Of a stretch of DNA of 56,849 nt, positions 30,350 through 40,372 are shown piece by piece (the first letter of the stretch is position 1; every line of letters starts with the position of its first letter). The notes under the pieces were generated by a model, which had not been told where the DNA came from, made no database searches, and was given only the letters and a program-made list of their open reading frames with translations. The translations under genes and the position numbers were made by a program. This DNA comes from an uncultured Pelolinea sp. (GTDB lineage: Bacteria > Chloroflexota > Anaerolineae > Anaerolineales > Anaerolineaceae): NCBI GenBank assembly GCA_964386805.1, contig CAYLUJ010000001.1, positions 1 through 56,849 on the forward strand, given 5' to 3'.

Positions 30350-30574
30350 ATCGTCCTCCCGATAATTCCCCCAAGTATATCAAATGCAGCCCCGATCTGG
30401 AATCATTGATCGCGAAACTATCTGTTTTCCTGTATACTTATTTCTTTGTTGTTCGGCAACAGAATGATCCTTTAAAATTATTTATTACGAAAGTAAAAAA
30501 GCCATCCAATTTTTTGGATGGCTTTTAAGGCGGCATTGGTCGAATTTTGTTTTATTTTAGGTTGCCTCTTTTAG

Positions 30575-30697
30575 TAAAAAGAAACCGGTTTTTTATGACC
30601 GGTTTCGCTATTCGCTCCCTGAGATTGTTGCAAAGGGATAAGTTACTACCCTCCCAAAGCGACCAAGTTCAAACCGCAGTTCAACGCTTCCAATACT
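30575..30697 (-). ncRNA. Unclassified structured-RNA candidate, copy 1 (paralog of 40137-40267), ending in an intrinsic terminator
   Basis: Minus strand: AGTATTGG...TTGGTCGCTTTGGGAGGGTA-loop-TATCCCTTTG...AGGGAGCGAATAGCGAAACCGGTCA, then terminator AAACCGGT-(8 nt)-ACCGGTTT + CTTTTT (30576-30605). Shares long identical blocks with copy 2. Confidence 0.5.
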
Positions 30698-30815
30698 CTT
30701 CTTTGACTTTAATAATCTTTTATCATTATTTTCAGAATTGGTTGTTTATCAAAAATAACAACAGGGATGGTATTTCTGCGTATCCCTGTTCGGTTCGTTA
30801 TTTCAAAAAAATTCT

Positions 30816-31691
30816 TTATTTTTTCTCTTCCCCCTTATCAGTATTCATTTGCGTGTAAGAGACCATTTCTTTTTCAGAGTTCACGGCAAATTCGAGGGCA
30901 GCTTGAGCGCGGGAAACGATCTTCTCAACCGATACTGCATCGATGGGGAAACTGGCTATACCTGCATATACCGAAGCATTTACTTGCTGAGCAGCGCCCT
31001 GGACAACCCGCCCTGCTGCAATCTTTGCTTCTTCATCGGATGTATCGGGCAATATCATACCTAAGGTTTCTTGATCAAAACGCGATACAACATCTAATGT
31101 TCGCAGAATTTTTTTACAAACCTTGGCAGTGGCTTCCATTAATTCTTCAGCACGTTCCGGATGACCCTCACTGACAAGGTTTTTATAGTTGAACACGCGC
31201 ATCATCATTACACTAACTGGCTTTTTTGTTCTTCTGCTGCGGATAAATTCTTCACCCAGTTTCTGCTGGAATAATTTCCATTTTAACAAACCATACGCGT
31301 CATGCAGGGTAAGTTCCTCAATGAGAACATTATTGGAGACATATTGATTAATAAAATGTGCGATTTGGGCATGCACACTTTTTGAAAGAATGGTGGAGAT
31401 TAGCAGAGCAGCAGCAAATACACCTATCCGGATCAATAACTGCATCATTTGTTCTTGAAAAGTATATTGGACGTATCCATACGCTAGAATGCTAACAACC
31501 AATGCAATCCAATCCATCCAACGATTGAACCTAAAGATTGTCAGAACAACGACAAAAGCCAGCAAGGAAAGACCCAGAAAAACAGTCGTTTCATCCACAA
31601 ACACGATCATTCCTGCGCTAATGATCAGCCCCACCGTTAATAGCACGACATACAGCAATAATCTGTTTTGAGAAATATTTTTATTAATCAT
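30816..31691 (-). CDS. PelD-like membrane protein: 4 TM segments plus a degenerate GGDEF domain retaining an RxxD I-site
   Basis: GGDEF-fold landmarks are present (DAYGLL..., ...SEGHPERAEE..., VYAGIASFP, ...RAQAALEFA). The active site reads DQETL (31062-31076) instead of GG[DE]EF, and the metal-binding Asp is lost (MMMRVF). RTLD (31092-31103) lies exactly 5 residues upstream, as in canonical I-sites. Confidence 0.7.
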   Translation of the reverse strand: MINKNISQNRLLLYVVLLTVGLIISAGMIVFVDETTVFLGLSLLAFVVVLTIFRFNRWMDWIALVVSILAYGYVQYTFQEQMMQLLIRIGVFAAALLISTILSKSVHAQIAHFINQYVSNNVLIEELTLHDAYGLLKWKLFQQKLGEEFIRSRRTKKPVSVMMMRVFNYKNLVSEGHPERAEELMEATAKVCKKILRTLDVVSRFDQETLGMILPDTSDEEAKIAAGRVVQGAAQQVNASVYAGIASFPIDAVSVEKIVSRAQAALEFAVNSEKEMVSYTQMNTDKGEEKK

Positions 31692-33870
31692 GCTTCCTCG
31701 CTTTCCGCTTTTTCACTATTTCGTCAATTACTTTTCCAACAATCACTCCAACTGTAACCACAGCAAAAACGATGCCAATCCATAGAGCAAGATTGTTTTC
31801 TTCTTTTTGAGGTTGCACCGGCAGTTCTTCTGCCGCAGGTACCAATTCTTCCATGTTTTGAATCAACGCAGATGAAATAGAGCCTTCTGCACGGGTAAGA
31901 GCAAGATCGCCATATAAGTTTTTAATATTAGTGGAATCCATTAATGCATCAATCGCCCACGCTATCCCTTTATCTGTAGTGCCAGTGGCAATCAATACAG
32001 GATATCCTTCATTGATCAATGCCTCTAGGTAACCAATATCTGCATTAATTGTATTTGTCTGAACAATATCAGTCTGGGTAACAGGATTATTGGTACCCTC
32101 TTCAAAAGGTTGCGGAAGATGGTCGTTCAGTTTAACAATCTCGCTGTTTTGCGTTGGTATTCCGATCAACATGAAATGGGTTGGTTTCTCAGAAAGCGCA
32201 GCCAATTCAGCGGGTGTATAAACCTGCAGGTCAATCCCATCGCTGTTGAGATAATGCCCTAGAAATTCACTGAGTTTGATCACTAATTCATTGACGGTCT
32301 GATTGGATTCATCGGGAAGAATCACACCGAAATCAGAGAGATCAGAACTACCAATGAATGCATACGGGAATTCGTTGATTGAGAGTACTTCAGTGGAAGG
32401 TCCTAAGGGCACCGTCAGTTCCGTATCCGCATAAACCACAATCCAGGCAGCCGTTGTATTGTCATCCAGACAGTCAAACCGATCATCCTGGTAAGCATCC
32501 GGCAGGTTGATGTTACTGACGACCGTAATCCTGTTATCTCCAAAATCAAATAGCCGTGCTGGGAGTACGAGGTCTGCCCAGGCATCATTGGCATTTTCGC
32601 TGGTCAAGGATACCGTTCCAGCAGGTGTACCATTTACTTGGATAGTCAGATAAGATTCTTCCAAATTTGCAAAATCTGTATGAGCAAAATGCAATCGCAT
32701 GGTCACATCACCGATGACTTTCCAAGAAGTTGCGAACGGCAAAGCATAGCTGATGGATTGTTCAGAGGTTCCCCAGGCGGTGACATCCTTATATTCATAC
32801 TTTTCAAGGGTAAAAGTGGAGGTGAATGTCTCCTGGGTTGAAACAGAGTCAGGCACCTGGTTTATCAACGCCAGGTTATCGGGGAGTTGCTCCAAGATGG
32901 AATCCCGGGTGAGTGCCCTGGCTGCTTCAACAATCGCCGAATCGGTATCCCCGGTCACAACCAGAATAGATTGTTTCGCATCTGCAAAGAATTGCCCACT
33001 CCATAGAATCCCTGTATTTCCGGGGTAAGCACTGCCATTCTTTTCCTTCAGCTTACCATTTTCCCAAACCCAGGGAGCTTGTAGGTCATTGAGAATTGCC
33101 AGTTGATCCGCACGCCCGACAAGAATGATGTTTCCTTCCAAACTGCCTGGATTCGCCATGGCATCTGTTTCAGTTGCGAAGTTAAGATTAACCGTCCGCC
33201 AGCTTGCAAATTGACCAAGTTTCGCACTAACCAGTGCAGCCGCATTGATTTCAGCAGACGTTGGAATATCCGGCAGAACAAAGGTTACCCTATTCTCTAG
33301 AATTCCGGAATTACTGACAAAGGGAAGGGGAAATTTATTAAGTACCGGGGCTGCATCCTTCATTCGATACTGAAATGTGAAATATGAACTGTCATGAACG
33401 GTAAACCACAATAAATCCTCATCCAAATTCAAGCAATCGAAGCCTTCATATCCCAGATATAAAACCAAGCGCACACGGTTATACCCCTCAACCCACAATT
33501 CGCTTGGAATTTCAACTTTCAATTCCCCAAGGTCGCTATTGGCACTGGTGAGCCCCGTGCTGGCAATTCGCGTTCCATTGACTTCAACAGCTATAGATGA
33601 TTTTTCGCTGAGAGCTTTAGCGTGGCTGAACACCAGTGTCAGAGTACTGCCGGTCTGTGGTTCCCAGGCAGAAGGCCACTGAAAACCATACTCTTTGATA
33701 GTATTGATCCCTTTAAAAGAATCATCACTGGATAGAATCCCCAGATCTTGAAACGTATAGGTATTGTCCTGGTCTTGAACAATTTCAGTGGGAGCAGCCG
33801 CAAAGCTGCATAAAAATGTCAAGAGGATCAAGACACTTTTTATGAACTTTCCATTCATTTTATTTTTCAT
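31684..33870 (-). CDS. BcsB-like periplasmic/extracytoplasmic synthase partner with signal peptide and C-terminal TM anchor
   Basis: 728 aa. N-terminal signal (KSVLILLTFLCSFAAAP). Duplicated module pattern (LTLVFSHAKALSEKSSIAVEVNGTRIAS / MRLHFAHTDFANLEESYLTIQVNGTPAGTV) as in cellulose synthase subunit B. C-terminal TM plus KKRKARK tail. Confidence 0.6.
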   Translation of the reverse strand: MKNKMNGKFIKSVLILLTFLCSFAAAPTEIVQDQDNTYTFQDLGILSSDDSFKGINTIKEYGFQWPSAWEPQTGSTLTLVFSHAKALSEKSSIAVEVNGTRIASTGLTSANSDLGELKVEIPSELWVEGYNRVRLVLYLGYEGFDCLNLDEDLLWFTVHDSSYFTFQYRMKDAAPVLNKFPLPFVSNSGILENRVTFVLPDIPTSAEINAAALVSAKLGQFASWRTVNLNFATETDAMANPGSLEGNIILVGRADQLAILNDLQAPWVWENGKLKEKNGSAYPGNTGILWSGQFFADAKQSILVVTGDTDSAIVEAARALTRDSILEQLPDNLALINQVPDSVSTQETFTSTFTLEKYEYKDVTAWGTSEQSISYALPFATSWKVIGDVTMRLHFAHTDFANLEESYLTIQVNGTPAGTVSLTSENANDAWADLVLPARLFDFGDNRITVVSNINLPDAYQDDRFDCLDDNTTAAWIVVYADTELTVPLGPSTEVLSINEFPYAFIGSSDLSDFGVILPDESNQTVNELVIKLSEFLGHYLNSDGIDLQVYTPAELAALSEKPTHFMLIGIPTQNSEIVKLNDHLPQPFEEGTNNPVTQTDIVQTNTINADIGYLEALINEGYPVLIATGTTDKGIAWAIDALMDSTNIKNLYGDLALTRAEGSISSALIQNMEELVPAAEELPVQPQKEENNLALWIGIVFAVVTVGVIVGKVIDEIVKKRKARKHD

Positions 33871-33880
33871 GCTTCACTCC

Positions 33881-35590
33881 TTAGTTCCCGGCTTTAGCAT
33901 TATCGTTAATTGTAAATAATCTCCATGGTAATGGAGAGGGAAACTCATATTTAAATGTTGTCCATGTTTCAAAACCTTCATAAATACCTGGGTAATATTT
34001 CAATACCTGTGATCTCCCGCGCGCATCAAATGAAGGATACGGAACCAAAATCTGATCAGCTTTTCCGATAGGGTTTCTCAAGATGTCAAAAAAGTCCATA
34101 TCGGTGGTCATTACGAGATTTTTGGGGTGGTCAACCATAAGTGCCAACGACATGGATATGGAATGATCAACGATTGTAATCGTATCATCCAGTTGTGCGT
34201 TGAGATAATCAGCAATCATCTGCATCTCCTCCAGTGAATCATTCTCATACGATACCGATTGTTGTTCACCGGCGATAATCCAGGCTAGCAGTATTTTTTG
34301 TGGCATGGGAGCTTCGATAAGATCCCACTTTTTACTTACCTGACTGACGATTGGGAATATCAATAACTCTACCAGTAATAAATTTACTACCAAACGGGCC
34401 CATTTCTTTTCCAATGAGGAATATACCGCTCCCATGACAATAATTCCTCCCGGGATCAGCCAAATAAAATAGCGGCTGAAAGCCGGCAGATAACCCCGAT
34501 AACCGATCAGGAAAGTGAATAAAATAATAGACCAACCCAGCATGACAAAATCGAAATCAATCCAGCGTTTTTTTATAAAAATTAGCAACAGTAAAACAAT
34601 GGTTGCAACAGCTAAAAGAGGTCCAACAAAAGTGATTTCTGAAAACAGCAGTCTAAAAGAACCACTGATGGAATTCATAGCATAGTACCAGAGATGATCA
34701 GGTCCAAAGGTTTGAGCAGTATCAGGGGTATTGGATGTCGCTCCGGGGCCGGTCAGAAAGTAAACAGGGTTGCCCATGATCGTCCAGTTGAGGAAAACCC
34801 AAAACAGGAAACCATAAGCTGGGGGCACAAGGTAAGATAAAAGATCAGCCTCCAATTTTTCCGGCGATGTTTTTCCTTTTCCGAAAAGCCAGCTCCAGCA
34901 AATACAGGCTGCCATGACCGCCGTCCAAGCAAGCGCTTCATAACGGCAGTATACTGCCAACCAGGCGCCGATGCCTGCCATCATGATTCCAGAATTTTTT
35001 CGCTCCTGATGCCAGGTTAGATACCCATTAAAAGAGAACAGTAGAAATCCGATGAAGGGAGTCTCCGACATGCCCAGAGCTGCATTATGCAGAATAAGTG
35101 GTTGCAGACCAAATAAAACCATCCAGACAATGCGCCATCCGCTTTCTACTTTAAAGCGTTTCAAAACATTGTTTAGCTGCACCATCGTGAACCCGGCATA
35201 GATAGCACTCATCAACGTGCCACTCAATATTTCCAAACGAAATGGCCGCAAGAGGATATTAAAAGGAATATCAGATACTGCTGGAAGCGGAGGCCAAATA
35301 AATCCGATCGCCGAAAGGTGTGGATCGCGTCCAAAGACAGCAGAAAAAGCTTGAGAAACCCGCGACAATCCTTCATAATCCGAGATATCGTAGATCAGAG
35401 TTCCATAAATCCCAATGATTGCGTAAAAAAAGAAAGCAATAAGAAAGATATGTGTTGAAGGATGCTTCATTAAATGAATAAAGCTTTCTCGAATATGCAG
35501 TTTCCTTTTCGTCTCAGGGGCATATTCGGGTGGTTTTGATGCAATGGACGGTGCAGGATTAACGCTATTGAACATGGCTGCCATCCACAT
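33881..35590 (-). CDS. Polytopic GT-C-fold-like (ArnT/PMT-like) membrane protein with C-terminal soluble domain
   Basis: About 12 TM segments, an acidic first loop (YDISDYEG) and a ~170-aa C-terminal non-membrane domain. The start is ambiguous (Met codons at 35590, 35584, 35575) and overlaps the synthase stop at 35565. Confidence 0.45.
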   Translation of the reverse strand: MWMAAMFNSVNPAPSIASKPPEYAPETKRKLHIRESFIHLMKHPSTHIFLIAFFFYAIIGIYGTLIYDISDYEGLSRVSQAFSAVFGRDPHLSAIGFIWPPLPAVSDIPFNILLRPFRLEILSGTLMSAIYAGFTMVQLNNVLKRFKVESGWRIVWMVLFGLQPLILHNAALGMSETPFIGFLLFSFNGYLTWHQERKNSGIMMAGIGAWLAVYCRYEALAWTAVMAACICWSWLFGKGKTSPEKLEADLLSYLVPPAYGFLFWVFLNWTIMGNPVYFLTGPGATSNTPDTAQTFGPDHLWYYAMNSISGSFRLLFSEITFVGPLLAVATIVLLLLIFIKKRWIDFDFVMLGWSIILFTFLIGYRGYLPAFSRYFIWLIPGGIIVMGAVYSSLEKKWARLVVNLLLVELLIFPIVSQVSKKWDLIEAPMPQKILLAWIIAGEQQSVSYENDSLEEMQMIADYLNAQLDDTITIVDHSISMSLALMVDHPKNLVMTTDMDFFDILRNPIGKADQILVPYPSFDARGRSQVLKYYPGIYEGFETWTTFKYEFPSPLPWRLFTINDNAKAGN

Positions 35591-38500
35591 GTGATTCTGA
35601 TTCCTTTTCAAGTTCCATACCAAAACCCTGGCTAAAACCATGAATGGTCTTTTCCCAATAATGTGGTTTTGTTATCAACTGTAAAAAACCTTTCCAGGCA
35701 CCAATACTCATTAAACCCCAATAAATTGGACTTAGCAGCGCAAAACGCACGTTATCGTAATGCCTGCGGCGCATGGCTCCGGCTATGTTCATATAAGTAA
35801 ACACAAAATTTCCAAGATAAAGGCTAAGCGAACTCAAATAAAAAATAAAACCGGGGAATGTCTCTTGTATAAATGCCCATTTCGTCAAATACCAAACCGT
35901 TGTAATCGTCCATAATATCGGATTGACCAAGGCAGCAAAGAATGTGCCACCTGTAACGAATTGAAAACTGATGAATCCCTTGAATCCCACTTCTTTCAGT
36001 AATTCCGCGGGGTTGCGCATGTGCACCAGCCAAGTTTGGATATATCCTTTTATCCAACGAGAACGCTGCCGCAACCAGTTATTGAGCCGGCTGTTGGCTT
36101 CTTCATACGTTGTCGAATCGATGGTGCGCGTATGGAAACCGCGTTTATAGAGTCGCATGCCCAGGTCAGCATCTTCGGTAACATTGTGAGGATCCCAGGC
36201 ACCCACCTCAACCAATGCGCGGCGTTTGAAATGATTGGAAGTACCACCCAGGGGAATGGGGGCATCAGAAGCATCCAACCCGGGCAGAAACAGGTCAAAC
36301 CACATCGAGTATTCTGAGGTAAACCATTGTGTTAGCAGGTTTTGGCGGCGGTTGTAATAGTTCAATTTTGCCTGGATGCATACCACATTAGGACTCGATT
36401 TCCGAAATGCAACAACTGCTTTTTTAAGCTGATCAGGGTCCGGGCGGTCTTCTGCATCGAAAATAACAACATACTCACCACGCGCGTGGATAAGACCATA
36501 GTTGCATGCCTTGGGTTTTGTTTTCGGTAATGAACCAGGCACAATTGTTGCGCGAAAATGAGGGGGAAGCTTTAAATCATAAAAACTCTGAATTGTTTCT
36601 TTATCTTCTGCTTCCAGTAAAATTTTTATATCTAATTTCGTACTCGGATAATCCAGGTGAGTCAATGACTTCATAAGTTCCGGTAGAACGCCTGCTTCGT
36701 TAAATACAGGAATTAACAGGGTGTATACAGGTAAATCTCTTGGATCAAGAGCATCCATTTCGGCTTGTGATACAGGGACTTCACAATCGTGGTTCATGGC
36801 ATTATAAACAAGATAGAATTTGTAAGCAGAAAAACCAATATAAAAAATCGTGATCAATTCATTGGCAATGATCGCAAAAGATGTAAAGTTCAAGACCATT
36901 AGTACTAAGGAAAGAACCAACAAAGCTGAGAAGAAAATGGTCTGCCCTGTACTCAACACATGGAACGCAGATTCTCTGGGGGAGCGAGTCAATAAATTGG
37001 ATGTGCTAATAGTGGTGTAATCACCATGATAAATTTGTTCCAAAGCTTTTTCAAGATTGGCTTCTGAAGTGACCACCGGGTGAATTTTTTTGCCGGTTAT
37101 TTCATGCGCTTTCTCAATGCCCTTTTCATCAAAGGGATCCACGATTGCCAACGTCAGATCAGTTTTCGTCACTTTAATGGGAAGAATTCCAAACTCGCGT
37201 TCTATTTCAGAATCGATTAACCGGGCAGTATCCTCCTGTATTGATGTCTTTTCCAGATCAATAAAACGTAATTTAGCCTGTTGGGCTAAAACTTCATACA
37301 TCTGATCTTCTTGAATATATTGTTTGATTAACAATGCCTGCCCCAGACGTACCCCTGTTTTCTTCGACAATTCCAATGCTTCATTTAACTGACGGCGTGT
37401 AATATAACTGTTTTCCAATAAATATGTACCAATGTTTTTCCGACCCAAAGTTCTCGCAATTGCATCTTCCAGGTCCGCTCGCATGACAAGCACTGGTTGA
37501 ATAGGAAGGGGAAAGTGTTCCTTTAAAAAATCAAGGTTTTGAGTATGTAATGGGTCAGCAAAGGCCATAATAATTTGTTGATTTTCTCTTCGAACAGGCA
37601 ACATACAATATCGATTGGCAGCCGCAAGATCGATCATCCCTGCCACGCCCAGATTCACCGGATCACGATAGATTGTCTTGGTAATCTTATTTCCAAGTCC
37701 ATCAAATTGCTCTGCCTGTTCTTCGATCAGGTTAATATTGTAAACAGGGACAGAAAAAACAGACGCCAGAATTTGATTTGCTTGACGTGCATCATAATAA
37801 CCCGCCTGGGTGAAAGCCCTATCAAAGGGAAGAGCGCCCGCATCCATCAGCTGGATCATCTGATAAGCTTGTGATTGGGTCAGATAATCAGAGTGAATTA
37901 ATTTTTGGATATATCCATGTGCTTCATCAGACACTTCATGACGTTCCGTTCCCCAACTTTGTTCAATAATCGCCCGGAGAACCTTTTTCGGAGTAATGAC
38001 CGGCACAACCTGCATCCTGAGCTTCTTCTTTAATTCATGGAATCCTTTTCCATTAAAGGGGTCAGAAGTAGCAATCCAGACATGATCATCTTTTAAGATT
38101 AATGGCAGTAGTTGATATTTTTCAGCCAGTTCTTTTGGAAATTCATTGAGAAGTTCTTGCTGAAGATTGGCATGTTCCAGGGAAACAAATGGAAGACTCG
38201 TTTGAATACTTCGAGAAATAGCCAAATCAATGTCGTCCAAATAACCCCGTTCTAGCAGTAATTCACTCAACCGCTGATCCTCAATGTCATCAGTACCTAC
38301 CACTTCTTGAAGCTGCTCAACAGAGATAAGGCCTAAGGTAAGCAGGGTTTCTTTCAAAGAAACGAACCGGGAGGCTGCTATTTTAGGATTCTCAAATGGA
38401 TAGAACATGTCCATCCAAATTTGCAGTTTCTGGCGGTCAATTAAATAAGGTTTTACTCTTTTATGAGTTAAAGCTTGAACCAATTTGACTTTTTCTTGTG

Positions 38501-39527
38501 AGATATCATTCCCCGCTAGCGAGATTGTGCTGTCAGTTCCATCGAATGCAATAATTTTTAACTGTCTGGCTATTCCTGATGGGATAGTTTCCACCCATTT
38601 TTCTTGGGGTTTTCGTTCAGCATCCAGGATTGGTATCTTGGTAAGCAGCGATTCAACCTCAAGTAACATTTCATGCGTGATGATTTTCAGATCCAAAAGT
38701 GCTGCGATAAGATCGGTGCGATATTGGCTACTGTAAATGTTTGCCCTCTGTAAATCAGACCTATCGAGTGAAAAACGCTCTTGAAAAATCGTAACCTTAT
38801 CTTCATTTGTGATTTGATGCGGTTTTTCACCCTCAAGGTAGATTGTGCGGAAAATCTTTCTCCATTGTTTTTCAGCGCACAACACTGGCTGTATATCAAA
38901 TGAAAAAAATGATTGAAGACTTGAAATATCATCGGGTAATGCGGAAGCGTTGCAACCCAGATATAGCCGATTTCCAATCCACCACAAGGGAATTACTTGA
39001 TGTCTTTCTGCTTCTTTTAATGGAATGAGCGTAGCCAGAACTTTTTCAATGACAACCATATTGAGATCAATATGGGGAATCTGATGTTGAACACCCAAGA
39101 TTTCAAGATGGATGTTCTCTTCTGAATTTAAATTCTGCAAACTTCGTTGCTCTTCTTCTGCAGACTGCTGCTCTCCACTCAACTCCGCTATTGCTTTTTC
39201 CCCGCTGTGTAATACATCTTGGATTGTTGATGCATTTACCTTCGGAAGGATGAATTTTTTACTTTCGTATAATTGGTTTTGGAAAGTTTGAATTTGCGCA
39301 TATGTTAATAAATATGGCAATACAGGTTTTTTAATGAATCTTTCGATTTCTTCTGTTTTGTCAAAGTTGATCTCCGCAGTGCCAATACAGTAATTATCAT
39401 TTTCCGTCCACAAAGGAACCACATCGAATTTTCTTGAAATATCCTCTGGAATTCCCGGATATGCATTCGTTGGTTTAAATTGTGTCGAAAGCTGTTGATA
39501 AAACCTGTTTTTAATACTCATCATCAA
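35565..39527 (-). CDS. Giant (1320-aa) processive family-2 glycosyltransferase with an N-terminal array of GspE-N/MshEN-type domains
   Basis: GT2 core is aa ~933-1165: LIPVFNE, DAED (1024-1027), TED (1117-1119), QRSRW (1154-1158), flanked by TM segments. Aa 1-850 carry about six repeats of the T2SS-E N-terminal pattern (hydrophobic-PL...hydrophobic stretch-DP...), two of which have full bipartite MshEN motifs. No ATPase Walker motifs. Confidence 0.85.
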   Translation of the reverse strand: MMMSIKNRFYQQLSTQFKPTNAYPGIPEDISRKFDVVPLWTENDNYCIGTAEINFDKTEEIERFIKKPVLPYLLTYAQIQTFQNQLYESKKFILPKVNASTIQDVLHSGEKAIAELSGEQQSAEEEQRSLQNLNSEENIHLEILGVQHQIPHIDLNMVVIEKVLATLIPLKEAERHQVIPLWWIGNRLYLGCNASALPDDISSLQSFFSFDIQPVLCAEKQWRKIFRTIYLEGEKPHQITNEDKVTIFQERFSLDRSDLQRANIYSSQYRTDLIAALLDLKIITHEMLLEVESLLTKIPILDAERKPQEKWVETIPSGIARQLKIIAFDGTDSTISLAGNDISQEKVKLVQALTHKRVKPYLIDRQKLQIWMDMFYPFENPKIAASRFVSLKETLLTLGLISVEQLQEVVGTDDIEDQRLSELLLERGYLDDIDLAISRSIQTSLPFVSLEHANLQQELLNEFPKELAEKYQLLPLILKDDHVWIATSDPFNGKGFHELKKKLRMQVVPVITPKKVLRAIIEQSWGTERHEVSDEAHGYIQKLIHSDYLTQSQAYQMIQLMDAGALPFDRAFTQAGYYDARQANQILASVFSVPVYNINLIEEQAEQFDGLGNKITKTIYRDPVNLGVAGMIDLAAANRYCMLPVRRENQQIIMAFADPLHTQNLDFLKEHFPLPIQPVLVMRADLEDAIARTLGRKNIGTYLLENSYITRRQLNEALELSKKTGVRLGQALLIKQYIQEDQMYEVLAQQAKLRFIDLEKTSIQEDTARLIDSEIEREFGILPIKVTKTDLTLAIVDPFDEKGIEKAHEITGKKIHPVVTSEANLEKALEQIYHGDYTTISTSNLLTRSPRESAFHVLSTGQTIFFSALLVLSLVLMVLNFTSFAIIANELITIFYIGFSAYKFYLVYNAMNHDCEVPVSQAEMDALDPRDLPVYTLLIPVFNEAGVLPELMKSLTHLDYPSTKLDIKILLEAEDKETIQSFYDLKLPPHFRATIVPGSLPKTKPKACNYGLIHARGEYVVIFDAEDRPDPDQLKKAVVAFRKSSPNVVCIQAKLNYYNRRQNLLTQWFTSEYSMWFDLFLPGLDASDAPIPLGGTSNHFKRRALVEVGAWDPHNVTEDADLGMRLYKRGFHTRTIDSTTYEEANSRLNNWLRQRSRWIKGYIQTWLVHMRNPAELLKEVGFKGFISFQFVTGGTFFAALVNPILWTITTVWYLTKWAFIQETFPGFIFYLSSLSLYLGNFVFTYMNIAGAMRRRHYDNVRFALLSPIYWGLMSIGAWKGFLQLITKPHYWEKTIHGFSQGFGMELEKESESHVDGSHVQ

Positions 39528-39792
39528 TATTATTAGTATCTTCGTTTTTTAAATCTTCCAAATTATTTCCAATTTCATTTTTGACAGGGAGCGTATTCTT
39601 ATTTTTGCGTAAGGAAAATAAAATACTAATATCTGAAATAGCTAAAATAATCGAAAAAACTCCGATTAGAATAATCGGAATGGTAAAATATCCTATCCAC
39701 ATGCCGAGAAATAATGTCATCATTATTCCCAGAGTAACAAGAACGCGGAATATAACTACAGTCATTAACCATGTGCGATTTTTCAGGTTCAT
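39511..39792 (-). CDS. Small 2-TM membrane protein with acidic tail; first gene of the EPS operon
   Basis: 93-aa ORF whose 3' end overlaps the synthase start by 17 nt. No clear SD. Confidence 0.5.
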   Translation of the reverse strand: MNLKNRTWLMTVVIFRVLVTLGIMMTLFLGMWIGYFTIPIILIGVFSIILAISDISILFSLRKNKNTLPVKNEIGNNLEDLKNEDTNNIDDEY

Positions 39793-40136: not shown

Positions 40137-40267
40137 AGAAAAAACCGGCCATAGACTGACCGGTTTCGCTATTGGCTCCCTAAAATTCGTTGAGGTAATG
40201 TCCTATGAATATTACAATACCCTCAAAGCGACCAATTAAGAATTTCTAGTTCGCAGCCTTCAATACT
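40137..40267 (-). ncRNA. Unclassified structured-RNA candidate, copy 2 (paralog of 30575-30697), ending in an intrinsic terminator
   Basis: Minus strand: AGTATTGA...TTGGTCGCTTTGAGGGTATTGT-loop-ACATTACCTC...AGGGAGCCAATAGCGAAACCGGTCA, then terminator AACCGGTCA-(4 nt)-TGGCCGGTT + TTTTTC. It must have its own promoter because the upstream gene is on the other strand. Confidence 0.5.
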
Positions 40268-40372
40268 ATACATACAGTGGCATACTTAGTATACAGAATA
40301 AAATAAAAATTACAAGATTAGGAAATAAACCAAGAAAGGGTACAATTATGTTCACAAAAAGGAGGTTTTAGC

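Follow-up and report, generated by a model that had tools for sequence, protein, structure and literature searches.

What does the five-gene operon on the minus strand of this contig from an uncultured Pelolinea sp. make, and how might c-di-GMP control it? The window (the whole stretch of 56,849 nt that was analysed) contains five minus-strand open reading frames spanning 30816-39792, here g1 to g5 in the order of transcription (Table 1). The gene set and its junctions are as the original prediction had described: g1 and g2 overlap by 11-17 nt, g3 and g4 are 10 nt apart, and g4 and g5 overlap by 8 nt. The ATG start of g2 is probably at 39521-39524, and because g3 orthologues have 564 aa, rather than the 586 aa of the frame as called (33881-35641), the true g3 start is probably at 35575-35590, with a g2/g3 overlap of 11-26 nt. 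The gene order is identical in seven orthologous loci (L001-L003 and L085-L088, with L087 ending inside g4; synthase identity 61-85%), so the arrangement is not a product of chance; at ~40% identity the set is retained but the order differs. Gene set, coupling, and domain calls together support a co-oriented, coupled EPS-synthase operon, and the locus is probably a synthase-dependent, c-di-GMP-ON, decorated exopolysaccharide machine of a single-membrane Anaerolineaceae bacterium. It is an uncharacterised variant of the c-di-GMP-controlled synthase-dependent EPS systems, in which the types of part are known and the combination is new; a literature search found no paper describing the g1-g5 gene set, consistent with the expectation that the whole combination matches no described system. 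Control by c-di-GMP is predicted at up to three levels: transcription, enzyme, and complex.

Table 1. Features of the operon and its flanks, in the order of transcription
Feature	Position	Strand	Description	Basis
Candidate promoter	40288..40315	-	sigma-70-like, TTGTAA-16-TATACT; just 5' of aptamer	consensus scan
Leader aptamer	40150..40270	-	c-di-GMP-II riboswitch-like, 38-nt inserted hairpin; operon leader	RF01786
Terminator/expression platform	40141..40167	-	intrinsic; 5' arm GAAACCGGTCA common to aptamer 3' end	11-bp stem + T-run
g1	39511..39792	-	93 aa, two TM helices; overlaps synthase start	
g2	35565..39527	-	1320-aa synthase: 6 MshEN-type repeats, 2 TM, processive GT2, inferred C-terminal TM bundle	
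g2 repeats 1-5	37452..39527	-	residues 1-692, degenerate/truncated MshEN; R1 ~10-94, R2 128-236, R3 242-384, R4 390-533, R5 539-692	repeat-6 self-HMM vs g2
g2 repeat 6	37278..37436	-	residues 698-750; MshEN tandem 24+5+24-residue c-di-GMP-binding motif	NF053729
g2 GT2 catalytic domain	36003..36755	-	residues ~925-1175; DAED, TED, QRSRW	Pfam + orthologue alignment
g3	33881..35590	-	~564-569-aa GT-C-fold membrane glycosyltransferase; small C-terminal extracytoplasmic domain	
g4	31684..33870	-	728-aa BcsB-family protein; N-terminal signal or anchor, C-terminal TM helix	
g5	30816..31691	-	291 aa, ~4 TM, degenerate GGDEF domain; predicted c-di-GMP I-site receptor	
g5 I-site	31062..31103	-	residues 197-210; RTLD (RxxD), DQETL five residues on in place of GG(D/E)EF	
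Second aptamer and terminator	30581..30700	-	c-di-GMP-II-like aptamer (30588-30700), overlapping terminator (30606->30581)	RF01786

At the transcriptional level, the original prediction had overlooked the riboswitch-like leader, which matches the full RF01786 model (1-84) with 43 bits (E=5.5e-8), against a gathering score of 53.5. The aptamer recurs at the corresponding position in six orthologous loci, one copy exceeding the gathering score (syntenic matches: L087, 54.5 bits; L086, 53.4; L088, 52.8; L001, 51.3; L085, 31.8), and compensatory pairs are present in the alignment. Leader nucleotide identity is 75-81% in L002, L085, and L087, and the terminator is kept in all eight aligned copies. 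We read the alignment as indicating that aptamer and terminator would be mutually exclusive; because the 3' strand of the aptamer is common to the terminator, ligand binding would favour read-through, and the leader would act as a c-di-GMP ON switch. The candidate promoter is weak, since such sites are as frequent in the region as expected from shuffling. In four relatives (L001, L086, L087, and L088) the aptamer lies directly 5' not of g1 but of a gene for a 666-795-aa TSP_3/DUF4215 secreted protein, and may therefore primarily control that gene. The window copy could thus be a relic of a lost TSP_3/DUF4215 gene, with the element downstream of g5 being proBA's or a mere terminator, and neither regulating EPS; the window and L085 copies are the lowest scoring, and ~350 nt of unconserved spacer separate the window aptamer from g1. 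Nonetheless, the window copy retains an intact aptamer core, pseudoknot partners, and terminator, L087 has no further terminator-like site between aptamer and g1, and the leader is kept in three genomes lacking the extra gene; we regard the relic reading as somewhat unlikely. The second aptamer, which has a poor P1 (38.7 bits, E=8.7e-7), lies between g5 and proB, ahead of proBA. Its syntenic counterpart in L086 reaches 48.5 bits, and the 20-nt aptamer core motif has exactly two occurrences in the window, where zero are expected. The element may terminate the EPS transcript, control proBA, or do both.

The synthase g2 was predicted to combine MshEN-type domains with a processive GT2, and this is confirmed by Pfam matches to MshEN in six stretches (E=1.8e-68), to Glyco_trans_2_3 (E=5.2e-27), and to Glyco_tranf_2_3, as well as by the motifs DAED (1024-1027), TED (1117-1119), and QRSRW (1154-1158), which are invariant in 11 orthologues. 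The predicted array comprises six repeats, but only the membrane-proximal sixth has a near-canonical 53-residue c-di-GMP motif; R4 retains an RLS...Q half-motif, and R1-R3 and R5 are without the 24-residue motifs. Repeat 6 scores 56.6 bits against NF053729 (cut-off 38), and its motif aligns gap-free with those of Vibrio cholerae MshE (5HTL) and PilF and is nearly invariant in the 11 orthologues, the family consensus being two copies of the canonical RLG..G..Q. Four key residues depart from the canonical form within the g2 clade, three of them in motif 1 (R9->N, G->S, and Q32->S) and one in motif 2 (G->Q), so binding of c-di-GMP by repeat 6 is not certain. The motif's conservation suggests that the sixth domain would bind c-di-GMP and free the GT2 domain, in parallel with MshEN in NfrB and PilZ in BcsA, and the five extra degenerate repeats may be accessory, serving as a scaffold or as a platform for docking. 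In the PDB, the g2 N-terminal region is best matched by Thermus thermophilus PilF (three matched stretches), whose tandem triplicated GSPII/MshEN domains resemble the g2 array, although PilF is an ATPase of type IV pili and has three repeats, and g2 has six (five degenerate) before a glycosyltransferase. Escherichia coli NfrB-NfrA-YbcH likewise has a c-di-GMP-activated MshEN glycosyltransferase and EPS output (PMC8669469), but NfrB carries a single, C-terminal MshEN, the reverse of the order in g2, acts with the outer-membrane porin NfrA, and has none of the BcsB, GT-C, and GGDEF-receptor partners of the operon; on the NfrB equivalog model g2 reaches 118 bits where the cut-off is 1170, with the best stretch in the MshEN part only.

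A hydropathy scan places two TM segments of g2 around 860-908. The C-terminal TM bundle does not reach the cut-off of that scan and is deduced from the BcsA/HAS alignment and from helices visible in a low-confidence AF2 model of the synthase core (pLDDT 49), so the channel architecture is based on sequence alignment alone: the g2 family profile matches BcsA, its closest solved GT2 relative, over the GT2 and the following helices (E=1.8e-16) and aligns with the TM region of HAS1. The GT2, with its DxD, TED, QxxRW, and flanking TM helices, would polymerise a nucleotide-sugar and pass the chain through a channel formed by its own TM helices, and the C-terminally anchored g4 would guide it at the outer face. 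That g4 is a BcsB-like, secreted, C-terminally anchored protein is upheld by its match to BcsB PF03170 (E=3e-51, residues 35-595), by matches to solved BcsB chains (E ~3e-7), and by a TM helix at 694-712 and an N-terminal signal or anchor in the hydropathy scan.

The operon thus resembles BcsA-BcsB in having a TM-channel GT2 synthase and a BcsB subunit that is anchored by a C-terminal TM helix; BcsA-BcsB is gated by c-di-GMP, as is predicted here. A divergent cellulose synthase, with g2 as a BcsA equivalent carrying MshEN for PilZ, g4 as BcsB, and beta-1,4-glucan as the product, would account for the BcsB and BcsA matches and for CelA TIGR03030 being the top-scoring NCBIfam synthase model (69.5 bits). 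This score compares with a CelA cut-off of 699, however, g2 is also far below the cut-offs of the PgaC and BcsA models, and all BcsB equivalogs are >9-fold under theirs. None of the five proteins matches PilZ at E<=1, in line with the original prediction; the operon has no BcsC, neither a GH8 BcsZ nor any further Bcs accessory gene lies nearby, and the GT-C partner, universal in this family, has no Bcs counterpart. Relatives favour mannose: a ManC-like gene (GMP_PMI best match) is present in 11 loci, mostly Bacillota, directly upstream of the synthase in 7 of them, and also within a Geobacillus plasmid cassette; one MshEN-GT2 is fused to PGM/PMM; and a gene of GH113, a beta-mannanase family, lies 4 kb from a 41%-identity homologue. 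The Listeria BcsB-family protein PssD reportedly pairs with a ManNAc-polymer synthase (Koseoglu et al. 2015). BcsB could accommodate other polymers (PMC4125290), and we consider a cellulose product improbable.

The polytopic g3, predicted to be GT-C-like, can be called GT-C by fold: its AF2 model (pLDDT 86, pTM 0.86) has GT-C enzymes as all of its top 26 Foldseek hits in the PDB (E<0.01; probability 1.0, TM ~0.5), with matches to STT3, DPY19, ALG12, Pmt4, PglB, and ArnT. Sequence matches are weaker, with a weak NCBIfam hit to LA_3751/3752, a GT39 annotation of the Geobacillus orthologue, and 24.4 bits against PMT_2 (cut-off 26.1) for the C. drakei orthologue. A collection with one genome per species yielded >594 loci. 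Synthase and GT-C are together in 80 of 82 related loci from Chloroflexota, Actinomycetota, and Bacillota, the GT-C gene mostly directly 3' of the synthase gene, and BcsB and GGDEF-like genes are in ~20 loci of Chloroflexota and some Paenibacillaceae. The five genes together do not form the evolutionary unit; the conserved core is the pair of MshEN-GT2 and GT-C, to which the BcsB and GGDEF-like proteins are accessory. The suggested fit to a single-membrane envelope agrees with the Anaerolineaceae host, and, as proposed, there is no outer-membrane porin, Wzx/Wzy, or ABC exporter among neighbour genes with orthologue Pfam calls, but the family extends somewhat beyond single-membrane organisms, the core pair being present on an alphaproteobacterial replicon and in a Thermocrinis MAG. 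We note that GT-C is the sole universal partner of the g2 synthase family.

The invariant adjacency of GT2 and GT-C would also suit a c-di-GMP-controlled glycosylation relay, with precedents in Ppm1/Pmt and CsbB/YfhO, in which the GT2 makes a polyprenyl-phosphate sugar and the GT-C passes it to proteins or wall polymers; the GT39 annotation and the protein mannosyltransferases Pmt4 and DPY19 among the top fold matches point the same way. However, g2 has QxxRW, PF13632, and post-catalytic TM helices that align with the BcsA and HAS channel regions, and polyprenyl-phosphate GT2s (GtrB/DPMS/ArnC type) are not known to have these features. Moreover, the Bacillota loci have a separate PgfS/ArnC-like or DPMS-GtrA-type GT2 gene adjoining the GT-C gene for the lipid-sugar step, and the window operon includes a BcsB-family polymer-guiding subunit, all of which makes a relay quite improbable. 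In the decorated exopolysaccharide machine that we favour, g3 would most likely add a polyprenyl-phosphate-borne sugar to the polymer as it emerges at the outer side of the membrane, modelled on the GtrB/GtrC, CsbB/YfhO, or GacI/GacL types; the proposed role is that of moving such a sugar to an outer-face polymer, as in GtrA/B/C, CsbB-YfhO, GacI/J/K/L, and PgfS-PgfM. Three-component glycosylation has a lipid-carrier GT2 and flippase, neither of which is encoded in the window operon, and a synthase-made EPS is not known as its acceptor. The Bacillota pairs beside ManC-like and Und-P-sugar-synthase genes suggest a mannose-containing or outside-decorated polymer, although the window has neither a ManC gene nor an Und-P-sugar synthase gene. 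The leading candidate for the polymer is a mannose-containing glycan. This lead is drawn from other phyla, and does not separate backbone from decoration.

The degenerate GGDEF domain predicted for g5 is recovered by Pfam (PF00990, E=3.3e-14) in a protein with three or four TM segments in the hydropathy scan, with DQETL occupying the GGEEF position of solved DGCs and an intact RxxD I-site. RxxD is retained in 15 of 15 aligned Chloroflexota-type orthologues and GG(D/E)EF in none of them; four Paenibacillaceae orthologues have lost RxxD. At the level of the complex, homology suggests that g5 would bind c-di-GMP at RxxD and activate or assemble the synthase with the BcsB-like subunit, in parallel with PssE and YdaK. 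That g5 is instead an active or residual diguanylate cyclase feeding MshEN locally, as DgcJ does for NfrB, would agree with its GGDEF match, with known local DGC-effector pairs (PMC8669469), and with the NCBI label 'diguanylate cyclase' for PssE-like proteins, but is very improbable given that both glycines and the whole motif are replaced, that no operon-context orthologue has GG(D/E)EF, that the I-site is conserved instead, and that PssE and YdaK, to which g5 is homologous, have been proven to be receptors (PMC4125290, PMC5422440).

A PilZ-less GT2 with BcsB and a degenerate-GGDEF receptor is not new, being the architecture of Listeria PssCDE and Bacillus YdaKMN. Listeria PssC/PssD/PssE and Bacillus subtilis YdaK/M/N provide a PilZ-less GT2, a BcsB orthologue, and a 4-TM degenerate-GGDEF I-site receptor needed for EPS synthesis, which contradicts the earlier views that BcsB is limited to PilZ-bearing BcsA and degenerate-GGDEF receptors to PelD (PMC4125290, PMC5422440). 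PssD aligns with g4 over 666 columns (21% identity, E=3e-24; 264 bits on the g4 family HMM), PssE with g5 across the I-site (24% identity, E=5e-6; 66.5 bits on the g5 family HMM), and PssC with the g2 GT2 profile (probability 99.6%). Both systems share with the operon a single-membrane host and the gene order GT2, BcsB-family, GGDEF protein, with the latter two genes coming last, and their receptors resemble g5 in length (~285 aa), ~4 TM (shown for YdaK), and an RxxD five residues before the degenerate motif. Unlike PssC, g2 is of another GT2 subfamily (28% identity, in the catalytic domain only) and has six N-terminal MshEN; PssA is unrelated to g3 (probability 0.8%), the DUF2334 protein (PssB/YdaL) is absent from the operon and no glycosidase (PssZ/YdaJ) was seen at it, and the operon adds the GT-C enzyme, the 93-aa peptide, and the riboswitch-like leader.

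The 41%-identity homologue is named 'glycosyltransferase XagB' by JGI, a likeness to Xanthomonas xagABCD by annotation name only; Xag hosts are two-membraned, and an MshEN domain or GGDEF receptor is not reported there. The xag genes are responsible for a biofilm EPS, itself uncharacterised, in an organism whose biofilm dispersal is ascribed to a beta-1,4-mannanase (PMC3528676), and in the 'bcsB-xagBCD' clusters of iron-oxidising bacteria a BcsB gene adjoins xagB-like genes (PMC4643136). Finally, g1 matches no family in Pfam or NCBIfam and has TM segments at 12-30 and 40-58 (hydropathy scan). Its orthologues lie directly 5' of the synthase in seven or eight Chloroflexota loci (phmmer, depending on cut-off) and reach 45 loci after HMM iteration, with low confidence for such a TM peptide; g1 may be accessory and serve the synthase as a small subunit, like IcaD or PgaD.

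The five minus-strand ORFs that the original prediction had placed in this operon were all found (see the table), and their tight coupling was borne out, the junctions being overlaps of 8 to 26 nt or a 10-nt gap. Profile searches with Pfam and NCBIfam recovered every domain foretold, including BcsB in g4 (PF03170, E=3e-51), GGDEF in g5 (PF00990, E=3.3e-14), and, in g2, a GT2 of the Glyco_trans_2_3/Glyco_tranf_2_3 type together with six MshEN stretches (E=1.8e-68). The mechanically called g3 ORF is probably 17 to 22 codons too long at its 5' end, because its orthologues are 564 aa; the true start would lie at 35575-35590, and ATG codons are present at 35590 and 35575. Housekeeping genes flank the operon, with proBA downstream and genes for VIT1, an Rce1-like protease, a HAD hydrolase, and HtrA upstream, and the closest named relative is from an Anaerolineaceae MAG. 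Drawing on domain content, the predicted GT-C fold of g3, homology to PssD and PssE, and conservation patterns, all of them taken directly from the tools, we consider it rather probable that the locus encodes a c-di-GMP-controlled, synthase-dependent EPS machine.

Coordinates of the operon genes and of the riboswitch-like elements
Feature	Position	Strand	Description
g1	39511-39792	minus	ORF, 93 aa; 2-TM peptide
g2	35565-39527	minus	ORF, 1320 aa; MshEN-GT2 synthase
g3	33881-35641	minus	ORF, 586 aa as mechanically called; polytopic, predicted GT-C fold
g4	31684-33870	minus	ORF, 728 aa; BcsB family
g5	30816-31691	minus	ORF, 291 aa; degenerate GGDEF
upstream aptamer	40150-40270	minus	RF01786 (c-di-GMP-II), matched end to end
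second aptamer	30588-30700	minus	RF01786, 38.7 bits, under the gathering score of 53.5; own terminator, between g5 and proB

Expression of the operon may itself respond to c-di-GMP. The Rfam match to the riboswitch family RF01786, 350 nt upstream of g1, scores 43 bits (E=5.5e-8), under the gathering score of 53.5, and the aptamer has a 38-nt inserted hairpin; a whole-window scan at the gathering threshold gives no matches, and the riboswitch appears only with an E-value threshold. Syntenic aptamers are present in related loci of other genomes (L087, 54.5 bits and over the gathering score; L086, 53.4; L088, 52.8; L001, 51.3; L085, 31.8), and the leader of L002 is 75% identical in nucleotides to that of the window. 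Across eight aligned aptamer copies, four pairs have compensatory double changes and the terminator is invariant, and by our reading the pseudoknot GGUCGC/GCGA..CC is compensated relative to the Rfam consensus GGGCAC/GUGC..CC. The terminator (40167 to 40141) consists of an 11-bp stem and a T-run, and GAAACCGGTCA is common to it and the aptamer 3' end; the two structures compete for this strand, so that binding of the ligand should result in read-through, as in an ON switch. Rfam gave no riboswitch in L003, L006, and L008, which are more distantly related, and a 20-nt core motif, which occurs exactly twice in the window (none expected), is absent from the other 83 loci, so the RNA element is restricted to the close clade. 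Sites resembling promoters and terminators occur in the operon as often as expected from shuffling, and such sites were kept only if conserved. In L001 (7038-9425), L086 (3168-5510), L087 (3479-5479), and L088 (3269-5422), a gene for a secreted protein of 666 to 795 aa lies between aptamer and g1, with TSP_3/DUF4215 matches in L001 and L088; L087 has no further terminator-like site between aptamer and g1. The window, L085, and L002 are without this inserted gene and keep the riboswitch leader, the window having a 350-nt unconserved spacer instead.

Downstream of g5, the minus strand at 30497-30700 has two strong terminator hairpins and the second aptamer ahead of proB-proA, and L086 shares the second-aptamer arrangement (48.5 bits). 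This element may place proline biosynthesis genes under a c-di-GMP riboswitch or may act as a gate on EPS read-through. We regard it as possible, if rather doubtful, that the riboswitches do not serve the EPS genes, a reading that would be compatible with the EPS machine proposed for the proteins. If the upstream riboswitch does belong to that machine, it would switch the operon ON.

The synthase g2 has six MshEN-type units, delimited with an HMM of the last repeat (residues ~10-94, 128-236, 242-384, 390-533, 539-692, and 693-842), of which repeat 6 alone adjoins the two TM helices preceding GT2. Only repeat 6 has the 24+5+24-residue arrangement that binds c-di-GMP in Vibrio cholerae MshE; the NCBIfam domain NF053729 ('c-di-GMP_motif') matches residues 699-750 with 56.6 bits (cut-off, 38), and the motif aligns gap-free to 5HTL (V. 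cholerae MshE) and to PilF. The motif segment is nearly invariant among orthologues. Motif 1 falls within the relaxed published pattern and motif 2 is off at one position; the window clade has four key departures (R9 to N, G to S, and Q32 to S in motif 1; G to Q in motif 2), and the wider-family consensus is the canonical RLG..G..Q, twice. Repeat 4 retains a half-motif, and the other repeats are degenerate or are without the helical subdomain. From these sequence features we infer that repeat 6 binds c-di-GMP. The five degenerate repeats might form a scaffold or docking platform, and g1 might be a small synthase subunit, although both are guesses.

The predicted DAED, TED, and QRSRW motifs of the GT2 domain are present and invariant in 11 orthologues. 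Among solved structures, BcsA gives the best GT2 alignment (family profile E=1.8e-16 over the catalytic domain and the following helices), and g4, like the Bcs subunit, is of the BcsB family with a C-terminal anchor (TM helix at 694-712), features that would also suit a plain cellulose synthase. We think this unlikely: the CelA/BcsA equivalog models TIGR03030 and NF008558 give 69.5 bits (cut-off, 699) and 47 bits (cut-off, 992), the GT2 falls far short of the cut-offs of all NCBIfam equivalogs for CelA, PgaC, and NfrB, and g4 is far under those of all BcsB equivalogs. The C-terminal PilZ domain of BcsA is missing here, as had been predicted (no match in the five operon proteins at E<=1), and the g2 family profile extends to the TM region of hyaluronan synthase. 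For the synthase core (MshEN6, GT2, and TM), AF2 with an 11-sequence alignment gave a poor model (pLDDT 49), which was left out of the fold search. Like NfrB, g2 has an MshEN domain with tandem 24-residue c-di-GMP motifs, but NfrB has an N-terminal GT2 and a single C-terminal MshEN, whereas here six MshEN units are followed by TM helices and GT2; with the NfrB equivalog NF008411, g2 reaches 118 of the 1170 bits required, with the best stretch in the MshEN part only, and the outer-membrane partner of Nfr is lacking.

The window g3 has no Pfam match. Its AF2 model (27-sequence alignment) is good, with pLDDT 86 and pTM 0.86, and the 26 best PDB matches in Foldseek (E<0.01) are GT-C glycosyltransferases without exception (probability 1.0, TM 0.31-0.54), including STT3/OST, DPY19, ALG12, Pmt4, PglB, and ArnT. 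Family annotations point the same way: the Clostridium drakei orthologue reaches 24.4 bits with PMT_2 (cut-off, 26.1), the Geobacillus orthologue is annotated GT39 by PGAP, and among distant relatives the protein P0045 has PF13231 and P0040 is named 'ArnT family'. This sequence-family support is weaker than that of the fold, yet consistent with it. We therefore assign to g3, on the strength of its model and these annotations, the GT-C fold of outer-face enzymes that use lipid-phosphate-linked sugars. A conserved D/E precedes an xLSR motif in the g3-family sequences inspected, and it may correspond to the acidic residue expected in the first outer loop of enzymes that use polyprenyl-phosphate sugar donors. 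Fold matches such as Pmt4 could also be accommodated by a glycosylation relay of the Ppm1/Pmt kind, with no polymer synthase in it, which seems improbable to us beside the alignment of g2 with BcsA and hyaluronan synthase. In the EPS machine that we favor, g3 would work outside the membrane, taking a sugar from polyprenyl phosphate and adding it to the growing chain. Two or three tandem GT-C paralogues stand beside the synthase in L008 (13892-17950), L010 (12310-15500), L058 (13418-16800), and L063 (5966-9660), which hints at several decoration or acceptor specificities. A C-terminal extension in the fused protein P0088 was tried as a further GT-C and was not borne out (probability 1%).

PelD, a degenerate-GGDEF protein with TM and GAF domains, works with PelF (a GT4), PelG, and PelA-C; GAF, GT4, and Pel families gave no matches in the five operon proteins (Pfam, NCBIfam). 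The closer parallels are the Listeria Pss and Bacillus subtilis Yda systems; in each, the operon likewise has genes for a GT2 that lacks PilZ (PssC/YdaM) and for an orthologue of BcsB (PssD/YdaN) (PMC4125290, PMC5422440). Listeria PssE is an I-site receptor with a Kd of 0.79 uM that is essential for EPS synthesis (PMC4125290), and B. subtilis YdaK has four TM helices and an SDERI motif, and its function requires RxxD (PMC5422440). The g4 protein is 21% identical to PssD over 666 aligned columns (BLASTP, E=3e-24), and the g4 family HMM gives 264 bits with PssD. In g5, DQETL replaces the GGDEF motif and RTLD (RxxD) lies five residues upstream; this RTLD aligns with the RTSD of PssE (E=5e-6 across the I-site), and PssE scores 66.5 bits on the g5 family HMM. 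RxxD is kept in all 15 of the Chloroflexota-type g5 orthologues aligned and GG(D/E)EF in none, so the I-site is predicted to bind c-di-GMP, and it is very improbable that g5 is an active cyclase, despite its clear match to the GGDEF family. The catalytic domains of the g2-family GT2 and PssC match with a profile probability of 99.6% at 28% identity (hhalign), but the g2 catalytic domain sits in a separate, large GT2 subfamily, and g2 has 1320 aa with an MshEN array where PssC and YdaM have ~416 aa and no regulatory domain. A PssA counterpart in g3 was ruled out (profile probability 0.8%), and DUF2334 (PssB/YdaL) has no match in the operon proteins.

By homology, then, three of the five operon parts form a Pss/Yda-like module, with a PssD/YdaN-homologous BcsB and a membrane-anchored degenerate-GGDEF protein but no PssA or PssB. 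The premise that BcsB pairs only with PilZ-bearing BcsA, and that degenerate-GGDEF receptors are known only from PelD, fails since Pss and Yda have homologues of a PilZ-less GT2, BcsB, and an I-site receptor. The claim of an unprecedented combination does not extend to this module. Of MshEN-GT2 with GT-C, our literature search (including BcsB, tandem arrays, and Gram-positives) found no published description. MshEN-glycosyltransferase architectures are merely listed by Wang et al. (2016). In its mode of working the locus resembles Pss/Yda, Nfr, and Bcs, yet it falls outside all three. We propose that c-di-GMP bound at repeat 6 and at the g5 I-site would activate GT2, that the synthase itself would translocate the polymer, and that the BcsB-like subunit would guide the chain. 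The g5 homologues beside BcsB in L056, L059, L066, and L078 (Cohnella and Paenibacillus) have lost both the RxxD I-site and the GGDEF motif; if they are still regulators, they would act without I-site binding.

More than 594 loci encode relatives (scan with one genome per species), and we found no dedicated study of this family. The best 80 of these loci are from Chloroflexota, Actinomycetota (Nocardioides, Solirubrobacterales, and Gaiellales), and Bacillota (Paenibacillus, Cohnella, Sporolactobacillus, Clostridium, Desulforamulus, and Sulfobacillus), with a few from other groups (Thermocrinis and Ca. Zipacnadia). The synthase core is matched by 2,592 clusters at E<=1e-30, and repeat 6, TM, and GT2 are kept as one unit in nearly all relatives; the sixfold array is restricted to Anaerolineae-type sequences (~25 of the top 150 50%-identity clusters). 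When HMMs from the window proteins were run on 82 loci, g3 homologues were found in 80, usually directly downstream of the synthase, whereas g4 was found in 20 and g5-like genes in ~20 (Chloroflexota, Cohnella, and some Paenibacillus). We conclude from this gene content that MshEN-GT2 plus GT-C is the evolutionary core and the Pss-like BcsB/receptor pair an add-on. BcsB occurs without a g5-like partner in Clostridium and Desulforamulus, and g1 is clear in Chloroflexota only. In the high-GC Actinomycetota loci, many clusters that had looked like conserved neighbours proved to be antisense shadow ORFs and were left out. The core pair is also carried by an 800-kb alphaproteobacterial replicon, and a four-gene cassette (ManC-like, BcsB, MshEN-GT2, and GT39) is present on the conjugative Geobacillus stearothermophilus plasmid pEF60063-1 (L083, 5102-11839), a context that suggests horizontal spread of the system. 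Transposase and integrase genes border this cassette on both sides.

Hints as to the sugar come from relatives. A nucleotidyltransferase, whose best NCBIfam match is mannose-1-phosphate guanylyltransferase (under cut-off), is near the synthase in 11 mostly Bacillota loci and directly upstream in seven. In Bacillota relatives, a PgfS/ArnC-like GT2 or a DPMS-GtrA fusion, enzymes for polyprenyl-phosphate sugars, adjoins the GT-C gene. In the related protein P0164, MshEN-GT2 is fused to phosphoglucomutase/phosphomannomutase. A GH113 gene is 4 kb from P0010, a 41%-identity homologue named XagB by JGI, and it is this name that suggests a possible homology of g2 to XagB. The xag cluster of Xanthomonas is responsible for an uncharacterised EPS, and dispersal of biofilms in that organism has been attributed to a beta-1,4-mannanase (PMC3528676); BcsB-xagBCD clusters are reported in iron oxidisers (PMC4643136). 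The whole window has no ManC-like, PgfS/ArnC-like or other small GT2, DPMS-GtrA, PGM/PMM, or GH113 gene. Because the ManC-like, lipid-sugar GT2, PMM-fusion, GH113, and xag hints combine, a mannose-containing polymer is the best lead, with backbone and side chain inseparable on sequence grounds.

Synthase-dependent EPS (cellulose, PNAG, alginate, Pel, Pss, and Nfr) are main outputs of c-di-GMP signalling, and such systems are, to our knowledge, little known outside Proteobacteria and Bacillota. Anaerolineae are abundant, filament- and granule-forming bacteria of anaerobic digesters and sediments, and we know of essentially nothing on their matrix polymers. The parts and the principle of the locus are familiar; what stands out is a GT-C enzyme as constant partner, an MshEN array of six units, c-di-GMP control that may have three tiers, and the wide spread of a family that spans Chloroflexota, Actinomycetota, and Bacillota and includes a conjugative plasmid. 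As a tentative joint reading, MshEN-GT2 plus GT-C might constitute a distinct, widespread class of EPS machine, mainly in single-membrane phyla, in which a synthase that forms a channel would have an extracytoplasmic GT with a lipid donor as its obligate partner; the Anaerolineae form would stack three c-di-GMP sensors (riboswitch, MshEN, and GGDEF I-site), its five degenerate repeats would have a new function, such as scaffolding or docking, and the matrix polymer made would be mannose-based or mannosylated. If so, one second messenger would control a single pathway at the levels of RNA, enzyme, and complex, which is testable, and g3 would be the first GT-C enzyme known as the constant partner of a processive GT2 synthase.

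Several relatives have other architectures. In P0109, P0113, P0136, P0155, and P0172 (1300 to 1600 aa), a GT2 core at 42-49% identity occurs without MshEN and as GT4 fusions, and P0113 and P0136 have a second GT2 besides. On a B. thuringiensis plasmid (L089, 6048-8101), a gene for a 251-aa GGDEF protein and the start of a gene for a 433-aa GT2 overlap; the two match the g5 and g2 family HMMs weakly and form a receptor-synthase pair without BcsB. On the Leptolinea sp. HRD-7 plasmid AP024711 (L091, 7540-13295), a g5-like GGDEF gene and two tandem BcsB-family genes have WbaP, GT1/GT4, and Wzx-like genes as neighbours, with no GT2 synthase in view; from this gene context, BcsB-like proteins may also serve Wzx/Wzy-type pathways in Anaerolineae.
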